Virus record (IMG/VR): IMGVR_UViG_3300046028_008994
DNA length: 64,000 bases
From: a virus
Reading direction: 5' to 3' (one strand)
Part shown: one piece after another, positions 17,456 to 55,212 of the stretch
Numbering within the stretch: the stretch's first letter is position 1
Layout of the letters: every line of letters begins with the position of its first letter
Made by a program: the position numbers and the translations under genes
Notes under the pieces: generated by a model
Seen by the model: the letters and a program-made list of their open reading frames with translations, nothing else
What the model was told of the DNA's origin: nothing
Database searches by the model: none

Positions 17456-18094
17456 ATGAGTAGATATAAACAAATATGTAATGAATGTAAAATACATTAT
17501 AAATCAAATGGATCAGGGAGTAAATATTGTTCTCCTGATTGTAGGCAAATAGCAAGAGCTAAAGATAGACAATTTACTTCCTGTTCCTGTTGTTTTAAAG
17601 ATGTTAGATATTTTCCTAACAGTGAACATAAAAATAAGAAAAATATTTTTTGTTCTAATAAATGTCAAGGAGAATGGATGAAAATTAATTCACAAAATCT
17701 TCAATTGGTTGAAAGAGCTAATAAGATGAGAGAAAGTTGGAATGAAAATGCTTGGAAAAAAGGAATTGAAACTAGAATAAAAAAAGGAAATATCATTGAT
17801 TGGGATAAAGCAGGATGGAAACAATATTGGAAAAGATGTGATTGGTTAACTAGAAAAATTAGAAAACAAATGTTAGAAAATTGGGATGGTTATGATTATA
17901 TTAGTAAAGAATATATTAAAGATAATTTAATTTTACATTATAGTCATGGTGATTATCCTACATTAGACCATATTAAACCCCGATCACAGTGTTTTAAAGA
18001 AGGTTTATCTCCATATGAAGCTACTAAACCAGAAAATTTAGCATGGACTACAAGAAAAAACAATAGTAAAAAATCACAGAAAAAATTAAAATAG
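17456..18094 (+). mobile_element. HNH endonuclease with N-terminal Cys-rich zinc repeats
   Basis: YCSPDC, FCSNKC, TLDHIKP, NLAWTT..N. Confidence 0.7.
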
Positions 18095-50977: not shown

Positions 50978-51011
50978 AAGGCTTGGTTATCCAGGCCTTT
51001 TTTTGTATATT
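50978..51011 (+). promoter_or_regulatory. Terminator-like hairpin plus promoter for the cassette array and thyA
   Basis: AAGGCTTGG-TTAT-CCAGGCCTT, TATATT at 51006. Confidence 0.75.
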
Positions 51012-51019
51012 TACGATAT

Positions 51020-51235
51020 ATGGATAAACAAAGATACACACAATCATTATCTTCAGAAGAATTCGAAGCAGCTTATGTAAAATACGCTTGTAATGAAGTC
51101 ACTCACAACACAATGACTCGAGGTGAATTTGCTAATTTGTTAGAAACAAATAAAGAATTTGCTAAAAGGTTTGTTCCTAATTATTTTGATAATACATTTG
51201 ATTGGTCTTATAATAACGAAACTGAAATAAAATAA
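51020..51235 (+). CDS. Hypothetical protein, distant match to ThyA insertion 1
   Basis: AYVKY...MTRGEFANLLETNKEFAKRF vs AYKNY...TQEEFINKIKTDDKFRHW. Confidence 0.5.
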   Translation: MDKQRYTQSLSSEEFEAAYVKYACNEVTHNTMTRGEFANLLETNKEFAKRFVPNYFDNTFDWSYNNETEIK

Positions 51236-51284
51236 TGTTCCAAACAAATCACAATAACATACAACAATAAAACAATAGAAAGTT

Positions 51285-51497
51285 ATGAAAATTAATAGAC
51301 CAAAAGATGGTGACTATAGATATAAAACTAAGTTTTTATGGTTCCCTAAAAGATTTGATGGCGGGTGGTATTGGTTAGAAATTGTAACCATTAGACAAGT
51401 ATATTTTTATTATGGACTAATCCCAGGATGGTATAATGTGTGTTTGTCAAACCCAGAATCAGGTCTCCCAATAAGTATTGACCCCATTAAAAAATAG
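51285..51497 (+). CDS. Hypothetical protein (cassette)
   Basis: FLWFPK....WYWLE pattern. Confidence 0.6.
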   Translation: MKINRPKDGDYRYKTKFLWFPKRFDGGWYWLEIVTIRQVYFYYGLIPGWYNVCLSNPESGLPISIDPIKK

Positions 51498-51503
51498 AAA
51501 GTT

Positions 51504-51857
51504 ATGAATAAAGAACAACAAGAATTATTGGATGAGGCTTATAAGAATTATTCTAAAAAAATGATGTATCATCCGGTGGAAAATTGGTTAGATGATGGAA
51601 ATGGTGAAAAAACTTACCGACAATTATCACAAGAAGAATTCATCAACAAATGTAAAAACGATACAGAGTTCTCTGGAAGGTGGGGATTAAAGATTGAAGA
51701 ACGAGAATTAGATATGATGGAAAGATGGAAGATAGCCGACCTAACACCTAATATGGAAGAATTTGATTTTGCTAATTATATGTGCGACAAACACAATGTA
51801 CCAACCAAACTAATCACAATAACATACAACGATAAAAAAATAGAAAGTTATGAATGA
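51504..51857 (+). CDS. ThyA-insert-like protein A
   Basis: Paralog of 52046; EAYKNY, QEEFINK, WG, EREL, NVPT blocks match ThyA inserts. Confidence 0.7.
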   Translation: MNKEQQELLDEAYKNYSKKMMYHPVENWLDDGNGEKTYRQLSQEEFINKCKNDTEFSGRWGLKIEERELDMMERWKIADLTPNMEEFDFANYMCDKHNVPTKLITITYNDKKIESYE

Positions 51858-52053
51858 AGAAGAAAAATTTGTAGATTGGATTGAAAGTCTAGTTGGTCGG
51901 GAAATTGTAGATTATAATATTAAACCAAAGTTTGATGATGACGGAAACGTTTTATCCTATGATATTATGGTACAGCCAAAAATGTCATTACAATATTTAG
52001 AGATTCCAATTACGATATCATCAACAGATAAAACAATAGAAAGTTATGAATAA
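51850..52053 (+). CDS. Hypothetical protein (cassette) ending DKTIESYE
   Basis: 67 aa ORF. Confidence 0.55.
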   Translation: MNEEEKFVDWIESLVGREIVDYNIKPKFDDDGNVLSYDIMVQPKMSLQYLEIPITISSTDKTIESYE

Positions 52054-52540
52054 AGAACAACAAGAATTATTGGATGAGGTTTATAAGAATTGGTGTAAAC
52101 AATTTGAAGTTGACCCCAATAATTTTAATGTGGATGAATTAGTTAAAGGACACGGTGACCAGTGTTGGGGTTATCCTATATTAGACCATGTTAAACCAAC
52201 ATCAAAAGAATATAAAAGAGGTCAAATAAACGCTTATTTAGAGGGTAAAGCAGATAGACCTTTCTTTTATTTATCAAAAGAAGAATTCATCAACAAATGT
52301 AAAACTGATATTGTGTTCTCTGAAAAGTGGGGATTAAAGATTGAAGAACGAGAGTTGAGTTTGGAAGAAAGATGTGATGAATATATTAAAATAAATCCAC
52401 AAGAAACAAATGATGGAGTATTGAATTACAAATGGATTGGAGACAATCTATGTACTCATGAAGATTACAATAAATGGAATATCCCAACCAAACTAATCAC
52501 AATCACATACAACGATAAAACAATAGAAAGTTATGAGTAA
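52046..52540 (+). CDS. ThyA-insert-like protein B
   Basis: EEFINKCKTD, WG, RELSLEERC, NIPT blocks match ThyA inserts. Confidence 0.7.
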   Translation: MNKEQQELLDEVYKNWCKQFEVDPNNFNVDELVKGHGDQCWGYPILDHVKPTSKEYKRGQINAYLEGKADRPFFYLSKEEFINKCKTDIVFSEKWGLKIEERELSLEERCDEYIKINPQETNDGVLNYKWIGDNLCTHEDYNKWNIPTKLITITYNDKTIESYE

Positions 52541-52814
52541 AAGAAAAGAAAAAAAAGACCGAATAAAACAAAGATGGGATGCACTTCAAACCGAGATTGA
52601 CAATTTATTTAATTCAATTATGTATGAATCATTTACAGAATGGAAGGGTATTATTGAAATCGAAATCATACAAATCATTAAGAAATATAATGTTGTGGCT
52701 TGGTATGGTAGAGAATTGAAAGTAATTACATCAATACACCCAGTTGATAATGAATACACTTTTGATGTTAGAACAATCAAAGGTAATTGGAGAGTAATGA
52801 AAATTATTAAATAA
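52533..52814 (+). CDS. Hypothetical protein (cassette)
   Basis: 93 aa ORF. Confidence 0.55.
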   Translation: MSKRKEKKDRIKQRWDALQTEIDNLFNSIMYESFTEWKGIIEIEIIQIIKKYNVVAWYGRELKVITSIHPVDNEYTFDVRTIKGNWRVMKIIK

Positions 52815-52833
52815 ATTAAGCTAATAGAAAGTT

Positions 52834-52983
52834 ATGAATGAAATACAATATTTTTTAAAAAAGGCAATAAGTTCTTGTAGAAAAGGTAAATTTTACTACA
52901 GACCTTGGAAACAATTACTAACTATTATTCTACTACAAATTAAATGTAGGATATTAACAGGAAAAACATTAGACAAACTATGA
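52834..52983 (+). CDS. Small hypothetical protein (49 aa), ATGA-coupled to thyA
   Basis: MNEIQYFLKK...TLDKL, starts in the sixth repeat. Confidence 0.5.
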   Translation: MNEIQYFLKKAISSCRKGKFYYRPWKQLLTIILLQIKCRILTGKTLDKL

Positions 52984-54149
52984 ACAATCTAGATAAACAA
53001 TACACAGACCTACTTCAAGACATTCTTGATAATGGTGTACAAAAAGGAGACCGCACAGGAACTGGAACCATTTCAGTATTCGGTAGACAAATTCGTCATA
53101 AAATGAGTGATGGTTTTCCATTACTTACAACTAAGAAGATGCCTTTCAAAACAATTGTAACTGAATTGTTATGGTTTTTAAGAGGTGATACAAACATTAA
53201 GTTCCTTGTGAATAATGGTTGTCATATTTGGGATGGTGATGCATATAAAAATTATTTGAATGTGGTTATGTTTGAAAAACCTGACTATCTACACGAAAAA
53301 CACGGGCATCTTAATATGAGTGTAAAAAAAGAAGGTGATAACTATCTACCATTTACACAAGAAGAATTTATCAATAAAATTAAAACTGATGATAAATTTA
53401 GACATTGGGGTGAGTTAGGTCCGATTTATGGTAAACAATGGAGGCGTTGGACTAAAAAGAAAATGTGGTTATCAACCGATGGCTCATATGAAAACATTTA
53501 TGATGAAGCTGACCAAACGGTTATTGACCAAATAGCTGGATTAATCAACGACCTTAAAACAAATCCAGATTCAAGACGATTGATGGTTAATGCTTGGAAT
53601 GTAGGTGAATTAGATGAAATGGTACTTCCACCTTGTCATTATGGATTTCAACTTTATACAAGAGAGTTGAGTTTTGATGAAAGATGTAAAATACAAATCG
53701 ATAGATTAGATGGGATGTATTCATCAGAAAAAGATTTGTTTATCCATCATTCAATTAATGCGGTAAAACAAATAAAAATGGATAAAAACAATATCCCAAC
53801 CAGAGCAATCTCTTTAATGTGGAATCAACGTTCAGTAGATACTGGGTTAGGATTAGGTTTTAATATAGCTAGTTATGGATTGTTATTAGAGATTTTTGCT
53901 AAAGAAGTAAATATGGTTCCTGATGAGCTTATAGGTAATTTAGGAGATGTACATTTGTATTTGGATCATGTAGAACCTATTAAAGAACAATTAACAAGAG
54001 AACCATTCCAATTACCTAAACTAAAAATTAAACAACATTCTATTGATGAACCAAGTCCTTTAACAAAACCTCAATATTGGCATCCTGATGATTTTGTAGT
54101 TGAAAATTACCAATCTCATCCTACTATTAAACTTCCCTTATCAAATTAA
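52980..54149 (+). CDS. thyA: Thymidylate synthase with three large insertions
   Basis: DRTGTGT, FPLLTTK, ELLWFL, GPIYG.QWR, SRR, LPPCH, QRS.D, FNIASY, HLY. Confidence 0.95.
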   Translation: MNNLDKQYTDLLQDILDNGVQKGDRTGTGTISVFGRQIRHKMSDGFPLLTTKKMPFKTIVTELLWFLRGDTNIKFLVNNGCHIWDGDAYKNYLNVVMFEKPDYLHEKHGHLNMSVKKEGDNYLPFTQEEFINKIKTDDKFRHWGELGPIYGKQWRRWTKKKMWLSTDGSYENIYDEADQTVIDQIAGLINDLKTNPDSRRLMVNAWNVGELDEMVLPPCHYGFQLYTRELSFDERCKIQIDRLDGMYSSEKDLFIHHSINAVKQIKMDKNNIPTRAISLMWNQRSVDTGLGLGFNIASYGLLLEIFAKEVNMVPDELIGNLGDVHLYLDHVEPIKEQLTREPFQLPKLKIKQHSIDEPSPLTKPQYWHPDDFVVENYQSHPTIKLPLSN

Positions 54150-54202
54150 TGTAGAAAATGTATTTTTCATATATTTATAATCAACGGAATGTTGATAGAT
54201 TT

Positions 54203-54982
54203 ATGGAAAATTATTATTTATATTATCATAAAAACCCACTAACTAAAGAGTTATTTTATATTGGGATAGGAACAAATAAAAGAGCATGGGATTTTACCTC
54301 AGGAAGAAATCCTCATTATAAAAATTATATTAAAAAACATGGTGAACCTATAGTGGATATAATTAAAGAAAATCTTACTAAAGAAGAAGCATGTTCTATT
54401 GAAATGGAATATATAGCTAAATATGGAAGAAAAGGAATAGAACCTAAAGGTATATTACTAAACAAAAGTATTGGAGGAGAGATTATTGCTTTAGGAAATA
54501 AATTTACTGAAGAGCAAAAACAAAAAATAGTTCAAGCTAAAACAGGACAAAAATATAATATACCTGAAGGAAGAGCCCATGGTAGTAAAGGTAAACCTAA
54601 ACCTGATGGATTTATGAGTGATGAAATAAAAGAAAAAATTAGCAAAGGAAATAAAGGAAAAAAACATAGTAAAATTCACAGTAATAAAGGAATACCTATC
54701 TCTGAAGATACTAAGCAAAAAATAAGTAAGGCTAATTCTAAACCCAAACCAGAAGGTTTTGGAAATACTATTAAACAAAATAGAAACCATAAATTAATAG
54801 GAGAAAAAAATAGTAAACCTATCATTCAATTAGATACTCAAAATAATATAATTTGTGAATTTAAATCTGTTAAAGAAGCACTTAAATATTTTAAAAAATC
54901 AATAAATAACTCTTGCATAACAGCTTGCCTAAAAGGAAGACAAAAAACAGCTTTTGAGTATGTTTGGAAATACAAAGAATAA
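54203..54982 (+). mobile_element. GIY-YIG-type homing endonuclease with NUMOD3/NUMOD1 (likely start MENYY)
   Basis: YLYYH....FYIGIG..KRA, E.E.I..YGR, LLN...GG, KPIIQLD..YVWKY. Confidence 0.8.
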
Positions 54983-54999
54983 TTCGTATATTAATAACA

Positions 55000-55212
55000 A
55001 TGATTAAATTAAAGTTAATAAATCCCGTAGGTGATATCGTTAAAGATATTGAATTATCAGAATGGACAGATATTGAAAGTTTTAAATCAAGTCATAGATT
55101 TATATTAGAGTCTAGCGATGGTTCAATATTCAATTACTCAGAAAAAGAATGGATGGAATTACCTCCTGATTATCAATCACACCCAACAATTAAAGCACCT
55201 TTATCTAATTAA
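55000..55212 (+). CDS. Hypothetical protein ending in a copy of the ThyA C-terminus
   Basis: ...DYQSHPTIKAPLSN vs ThyA NYQSHPTIKLPLSN. Confidence 0.6.
   Translation: MIKLKLINPVGDIVKDIELSEWTDIESFKSSHRFILESSDGSIFNYSEKEWMELPPDYQSHPTIKAPLSN

Follow-up and report, generated by a model that had tools for sequence, protein, structure and literature searches.

A phage thymidylate synthase shares exchangeable surface loops with a family of small non-catalytic paralogs

The thyA locus and its mini-genes

We analyzed a stretch of 64,000 nucleotides (nt; hereafter the window) from the viral record IMGVR_UViG_3300046028_008994, in which a long-form thymidylate synthase (TS) gene, thyA (52980..54149; 389 amino acids (aa)), is preceded by two mini-genes, m1 (51504..51857, 117 aa) and m2 (52046..52540, 164 aa); these, like the other features of the region, lie on the plus strand. 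Both mini-genes carry border blocks of ThyA in order, and a comparison of alleles showed that the loops between these borders are exchanged by recombination between mini-genes (minis) and thyA, in both directions and slot by slot. The source genome is complete (171,684 nt, direct terminal repeats, 29% G+C), occurs in lake-water metagenomes and codes for a family-B-type DNA polymerase, a single-stranded DNA-binding protein (SSB) and a UvsX-like recombinase. The host is likely a member of the Bacteroidota, since the closest cultured ThyAs (53–54% identity) are those of the Flavobacterium Immutovirus phages vB_FspM_immuto (MW353175-7; hereafter immuto), which have the same slots.

Both sequence and structural model predict that the product of thyA is a ThyA capable of dTMP synthesis: it matches PF00303 (E 1e-93, 313.8 bits) and TIGR03284 (299.8 against a cut-off of 108), its model aligns with the L. 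casei TS at a Z score of 32, and the catalytic and dUMP-contacting residues are kept (C219, R199/R200, R284/S285, D287, N295, H325 and Y327). Five surface sites are variable in ThyA, among them slot 1 (~53256-53357), slot 1b (~53448-53522) and slot 2 (53670-53789); some ThyAs have a third slot with slot-2-type borders, which draws on the same allele pool. Slot 1 maps to the small domain of long-form TS, known to be highly variable between organisms (PMC6479881). In its fold and in the placement of slot 1 in the small domain, the phage enzyme resembles the long-form TSs of L. casei (1lca/4tms), E. faecalis (3uwl) and S. aureus (4dq1). However, the small domain of the bacterial enzymes is one fixed domain, whereas in the phages it serves as a cassette slot, for which our sample has ~135 allele types; moreover, the phage ThyA has further slots, and its parts also occur as free genes. 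The bacterial ThyAs that we retrieved were short forms.

Several features of individual ThyAs may be recorded here. That of the window deviates from the family in having Gly for Phe289 and Pro293 (53844-53858 region) and one residue fewer ahead of the small-domain Trp (at residue 141). The ThyA of L006 (5719-7710, 663 aa) bears an in-frame, homing-endonuclease-like insertion of ~290 aa at slot 1b, and that of L082/L084 (8153-10036, 627 aa) is likewise long. In two phages of >630 kb (LR756502 and LR745206; L327 and L328), the same long form of ThyA is present, slots 1 and 2 included, but no mini.

The initial annotation had described the mini-genes as the borders of two ThyA insertions stripped of the catalytic core. 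The border motifs are indeed present in order in the open reading frames (ORFs) at 51504 and 52046 and in ThyA; the DNA of 52350-52375 matches that of 53662-53687 at 24 of 26 positions, and a 13-mer recurs exactly at 52478 and 53790. Each mini scores 78 against ThyA, beyond the best of 1000 shuffles (70 and 62), which rules out AT-richness as the cause of the similarity, and the loops between the borders are mutually unrelated in the three genes, as had been noted. The catalytic residues are absent, and neither mini has a TS hit in Pfam, PHROG or NCBIfam. What needs amending is the view that only insert borders were kept. Alignment of the mini and ThyA family profiles with HHalign (probability 99.1%, E 5.5e-19) places ThyA residues 145-221 in a single gap and extends over the small-domain helices and two core β-strands around insertion 2. 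Because the homology also spans these strands, the minis are, on sequence grounds, deletion derivatives of ThyA and not inserts alone. In m1 an N-terminal anchor (to 51551) is followed by slot 1 (~51552-51629), a middle anchor (~51630-51710), slot 2 (51711-51794) and a C-terminal anchor (from 51795); m2 has slot 1 at ~52094-52276, the middle anchor at ~52277-52357, slot 2 at 52358-52477 and the C-terminal anchor from 52478.

A further ORF (51020..51235, 71 aa) had been taken for a more distant copy of the first insertion. Compared with the window's ThyA alone it does not stand out from chance (159/1000 shuffles); the family profile, on the other hand, recovers it at 13.3 bits, shuffled sequences reaching at most 9.3, and it has homologs of its own in L037, L044 and L053. 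By profile, then, it is a distant relative of the minis that has slot 1 only.

The AlphaFold2 model of a mini (pLDDT 87, pTM 0.72) predicts a three-stranded sheet with helices. In searches by shape, viral TSs came out on top as weak matches, these being predicted structures (TM 0.46–0.50 over 93–95 residues, root-mean-square deviation 5.4), and no TS or other clear match was found in the PDB by Foldseek or VIA (best Z 3.2) or by sequence. The models weakly support the proposal that the two loops of ThyA lie together. The predicted complex of m1 with ThyA scored 0.02 and was counted neither for nor against binding. Separately, a zinc-finger/HNH-like ORF at window positions 17456-18094 weakly resembles the slot-1 loop of m2 over 25 residues (52%, E 0.005) and is a possible source of that module.

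Exchange of loops and selection on the mini-genes

We compared the loop alleles of 518 mini-like proteins and 253 ThyAs; both sets were gathered by querying with genes of the window, so that the fractions obtained from them are not free of bias as population rates. Minis were present in 32 of the 72 ThyA allele clusters of slot 1 and in 42 of the 101 of slot 2. No cluster mixed slot 1 with slot 2, and the 1,740 links observed fell to 0 after shuffling of the loops. The window's own alleles illustrate the sharing: the slot-1 allele of m2 is found within the ThyAs of L003, L004 and L006-L010, its slot-2 allele within the L002 ThyA (88% nucleotide identity) and the slot-1 allele of m1 in ThyA P0127, while the slot-2 allele of the window's ThyA turns up in minis of L037/L038. 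In three assemblies of one lineage (L026, L027 and L052), the mini and thyA have 117 exact bases in common from border to border, the longest mini/thyA match being otherwise a median of 11 nt. An identical loop allele is carried by thyA alone in L064 and, in L199, by a mini whose neighboring thyA is a different one; therefore, a recent transfer between mini and thyA stands even were a contig chimeric.

Exchange tracts can overrun the border. Two minis have ThyA-type residues after slot 2, and the ThyA-type Ile of the middle anchor occurs in 38 of 293 minis and the mini-type Cys in 2 of 207 ThyAs, P0137 and P0147 being the ThyAs with mini-type flank residues. At the borders, synonymous codons are common to minis and thyA, and the synonymous diversity of thyA is lower than elsewhere (0.28 vs. 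0.40, P 0.003). Among the minis, slot-1 and slot-2 alleles are freely combined. The proposal that loop alleles move between mini-genes and thyA at the conserved borders is thus borne out by slot-specific allele sharing, the 117-nt tract and the leakage at the flanks. Chimeras with a single crossover (L169, P0123, P0125 and P0128) and mini/thyA joints in lake contigs also fit recombination; they might, however, be assembly joins or the thyA of other phages, and neither was counted.

The mini-genes themselves are not decaying neutrally. In a search at the DNA level, all 287 of 287 anchor-to-anchor intervals were in frame and stop-free, three seeming frame exceptions being anchor pairs that span two genes. 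The ratio of non-synonymous to synonymous substitution (dN/dS) of the mini scaffold is 0.31, alleles paired by nucleotide identity give 0-fold/4-fold ratios of 0.19–0.34, and synonymous variants are enriched at positions found only in minis (23/42 vs. 46/175, P 0.0007). Intact frames, dN/dS and the synonymous excess at mini-only positions together rule out neutral decay, and the selection and the confident model back the earlier suggestion of a free, folded mini-protein.

This family is large. Clustering at 90% leaves m1 with 4,243 relatives and clustering at 50% with 635, some of the latter possibly ThyAs, and no named family covers them in Pfam, PHROG, NCBIfam or the PDB. Fold matches of the mini are confined to uncharacterized proteins of uncultured phages, and our searches found no mini in GTDB genomes or among deposited phages. 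Up to 8 minis occur per locus, with alleles alike in only 1 of 84 pairs. In 53 of 60 loci with a long ThyA the minis lie upstream of it, at a median of 445 nt. A TS gene is within reach in 79 mini loci; in 18 of these it codes for a short B. subtilis-type TS, which lacks the borders, and in 1 for ThyX. In G001, a record of 224 kb that is 76% complete, three minis lie beside a short TS, and no other TS was found. In 8 loci the minis are distant from any TS. Two side observations concern mini variants: in a divergent subfamily, possibly of independent origin, a different short Cys-containing linker joins slots 1 and 2 (L122:3823, L137:3877, L144:1626, L158:4895 and L243:2), and minis are fused with a ThyA C-terminus, a PurS-like domain, a glycosyltransferase and a 504-aa protein in P0121, P0122, P0124 and P0126, some of these fusions maybe being assembly joins.

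Modules and anchors also appear in other genes. An RNA ligase (L053:2651-3259) contains an in-frame slot-2 module, an unrelated 205-aa protein (L049:3298-3915) has a slot-2 module appended, and one long slot-2 allele constitutes an entire small gene. A second locus of the anchor-and-insert kind lies in the genome at ~71047-72230 (window coordinates, beyond the window's end), and the cysteine-rich module of its ORF 71047 resembles the slot-1 loop of the L210 ThyA. About 20 unrelated small ORFs near thyA (in L005, L007, L033, L114, L226 and others) start with ThyA's first ~six residues, 4 ORFs share its end, and the mini tail closes 22 ORFs that are not minis; gene ends serve as recombination anchors too. 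In L158 (7882) and L137 (7903), we also noticed 59-aa ORFs made of a single slot-2/3-type module and ThyA's last residues.

Possible roles of the mini-genes

We favor the reading that the minis are a display scaffold for host-binding modules, to which we assign a probability of roughly 0.45. The minis would have arisen once from a long-form phage thyA through loss of the N-terminal domain, the catalytic middle and the C-terminal half, a loss that the alignment shows, and would now be a translated family of their own with two cassette slots on a small predicted helix-and-sheet scaffold, translation being suggested by the selection. Because the slots have borders of 20–45 nt in common with thyA, loop modules would pass from minis to thyA and back by homologous recombination or gene conversion, both inside one phage and from one co-infecting phage to another, probably through the UvsX-like recombinase. 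The minis would be maintained for their protein products, which present several different modules in each phage; these modules most likely bind host proteins in takeover or counter-defense, with ThyA as a further carrier. We favor this reading since the minis are intact, selected, allele-diverse per locus and kept beside a loop-less TS or ThyX, and we also count for it the module within the RNA ligase and the presence of a UvsX-like gene in a genome without a reverse transcriptase or tyrosine integrase. A more ambitious version, in which hundreds of small folded modules, reshuffled by recombination, form a repertoire that binds host proteins combinatorially from the two-slot scaffold and ThyA, is doubtful; such a repertoire would somewhat resemble an antibody scaffold with two swappable loops.

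Several observations weigh against display as the role of the minis. Most long ThyAs have no mini nearby, and the complete immuto genomes contain none; the minis are thus dispensable. At their C-terminal anchor, 4-fold sites are more conserved than 0-fold sites, so that the anchor is partly constrained as DNA or RNA, as expected for a recombination anchor or a translation-start context. The sole hint of expression is a depth-5 metatranscriptome contig with a relative's mini, which is possibly DNA. Translational coupling to thyA could account for the open frames, and the selection on alleles may have accrued while the module sat in ThyA.

Some of these observations fit near-neutral hitchhiking, a less probable account in which modules are tolerated in highly recombinogenic phages and minis spread as cassettes via their end repeats, with frames open only since a stop would have polar effects on thyA and misfolding of the products would carry a cost. 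The DNA-level constraint on the C-terminal anchor, the reuse of ThyA termini on unrelated ORFs, the second anchor-and-insert locus, whose cysteine module resembles a ThyA loop, and the many relatives without minis all speak for it. It sits poorly, however, with amino-acid constraint alongside free synonymous change at mini-only positions, with the confident predicted fold, with thousands of clusters and a sample free of pseudogenes, and with the retention of minis in the loci far from any TS. The initial annotation had instead envisaged a decoy: a host sensor or inhibitor would see the surface of phage ThyA, whose loops vary to escape it, and the free minis would soak it up. Such logic is known in other phage counter-defenses, the minis mimic parts of the ThyA surface, viral TSs come out on top of the shape searches, and the ThyA surface has its five variable sites. 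As a decoy for the phage's own ThyA the minis are nevertheless a poor fit, and we consider this quite unlikely: of 40 ThyAs, just 1 has an allele in common with a mini of its own locus, minis persist beside ThyX or an unrelated short TS, and a decoy on a conserved scaffold leaves the variable slots unexplained. Nor was a ThyA-sensing defense found in the literature searched, outside of which lie most subscription journals.

The other role proposed at the outset was a donor library, the minis storing alleles that convert thyA in the manner of silent pilin or vls cassettes. Its mechanistic half, recombination of loops at the borders, holds, as the 117-nt tract, the mini-type flanks of two ThyAs and the presence in minis of 41–44% of the ThyA slot-1 and slot-2 allele types attest. 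As the main purpose, it is improbable. The minis are intact and selected as proteins, traffic is two-way with leakage chiefly from thyA to mini (though ThyA is also the more constrained of the two), and 19 of the 79 loci have no adjacent recipient. Slot 1b, which has 85 allele types, none ever in minis, differs between two mini-free immuto isolates that are 98% identical upstream; a donor library is therefore not required for swapping. The immuto slot-1 allele does recur in a mini (L050). Least probable of all, in our estimate, is an adaptor or regulator of nucleotide synthesis that binds TS or other enzymes of dNTP supply via the retained strands or the loops. The minis are tightly linked upstream of TS genes of any type, the retained strands are part of the sheet from which the TS dimer interface is built, and the loops of T4 TS are proposed complex-binding sites; hypervariable, interchangeable loops are nonetheless ill-suited to a fixed partner, and the strand residues of the minis have diverged from ThyA. 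The display of host-binding modules hence remains the reading that we prefer.

Organization of the array and likeness to known systems

The minis form part of an array of small cassettes. At its head, a terminator-like hairpin (50978..51012), the sole terminator-like site of the region, overlaps a promoter-like motif of the Bacteroidota type (TTG, 20 nt, TATATTTA), assigned by consensus match only. The distant relative at 51020 follows; its stop is succeeded by a stray copy of the C-terminal tail of the minis (51236-51292). Unrelated cassette genes are interspersed with the minis: one of 70 aa (51285..51497; phrog_11031, E 6e-10), one of 67 aa that has the same C-terminal tail as the minis (51850..52053) and two more (93 and 49 aa; 52533..52983) that are overlap-chained to thyA. 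Six exact 14-nt repeats mark the junctions (51275, 51494, 51840, 52036, 52523 and 52824; span 51275..52837), compared to 0.01 expected, and each provides the start codon of the next gene and, in three cassettes, also the last residues of the previous one. No inverted repeat at the cassette junctions was among the 25 longest listed, no attC model having been used.

In T4-type phages, promoter early stem-loops (PeSLs) are short repeats through which the small genes of hyperplastic regions are gained, lost and replaced by recombination (PMC2839356, PMC4122927), and the window's array behaves alike. However, PeSLs are intergenic promoter-terminator units that shift whole genes, whereas here coding anchors shift sub-gene modules into an essential enzyme; the 14-nt repeats lie at gene overlaps and are hairpin-free, the hairpin and promoter-like motif being found only at the array head. 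Two other classes of variation-generating system can be set aside. A diversity-generating retroelement is excluded, as the complete genome lacks a reverse transcriptase (PF00078), the loops are non-homologous and differ in length, and there are no adenine-type template/variable repeats; an integron cassette array is ruled out by the absence of a tyrosine integrase (PF00589) from the same genome.

Among systems with protein-coding borders, the T-even adhesin gp38 and tail fibers have hypervariable segments between conserved motifs, which are swapped by recombination at short coding borders. In both, the varying protein belongs to the virion and binds receptors, and the reason why its variation is selected is known; here, by contrast, a cytoplasmic enzyme and a non-catalytic paralog family carry the variation. 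Silent-cassette gene conversion operates in Neisseria pilS/pilE and Borrelia vls, which the present locus resembles in having partial copies by a full gene, conserved borders round variable segments and conversion tracts. It differs from them in that its potential donors are coding, the minis being intact ORFs under protein selection, that transfer is two-way and not one-way, and that matches within the own genome are rare. The immuto phages have the same ThyA slots without any mini-gene, and swapping is absent from their annotation.

Recombination at short conserved borders is hence a mechanism class already known from adhesins, antigenic variation and PeSL shuffling. What appears to be new is an essential metabolic enzyme that has its allele pool in common with a family comprising thousands of non-catalytic paralogs; neither this nor any description of the mini family was found in the literature searched, which leaves out most subscription journals. 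It follows from the exchange that TS tolerates the wholesale swapping of surface modules, which suggests a selective pressure on a core phage enzyme. The ~270 natural module types are candidates for host-binding or anti-defense activity, and experiments could address the question in the cultured Flavobacterium phages, which have the same ThyA.

Downstream of thyA lie a free-standing homing endonuclease gene with NUMOD3 repeats (54158..54982) and a small ORF (55000..55212) whose C-terminal end is a copy of ThyA's last 14 residues (12/14 identical). In L005 the counterpart of this small ORF sits behind thyX; since an ORF with the ThyA C-terminal end remains there, the arrangement suggests that thyX took the place of thyA. 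In L046 and L090 it is the homing endonuclease itself that has a ThyA-like C-terminal end. Cassette content varies among relatives, and in a contig from run X15 the first repeat is fused to the thyA start (51289 to 52975), skipping the array of 1,685 nt. A similar hairpin with the motif lies ahead of other genes at ~12906 and ~24884; the promoter-like motif as such precedes several genes of the window (12906, 24884, 25675 and 51004), three times within a near-identical hairpin.

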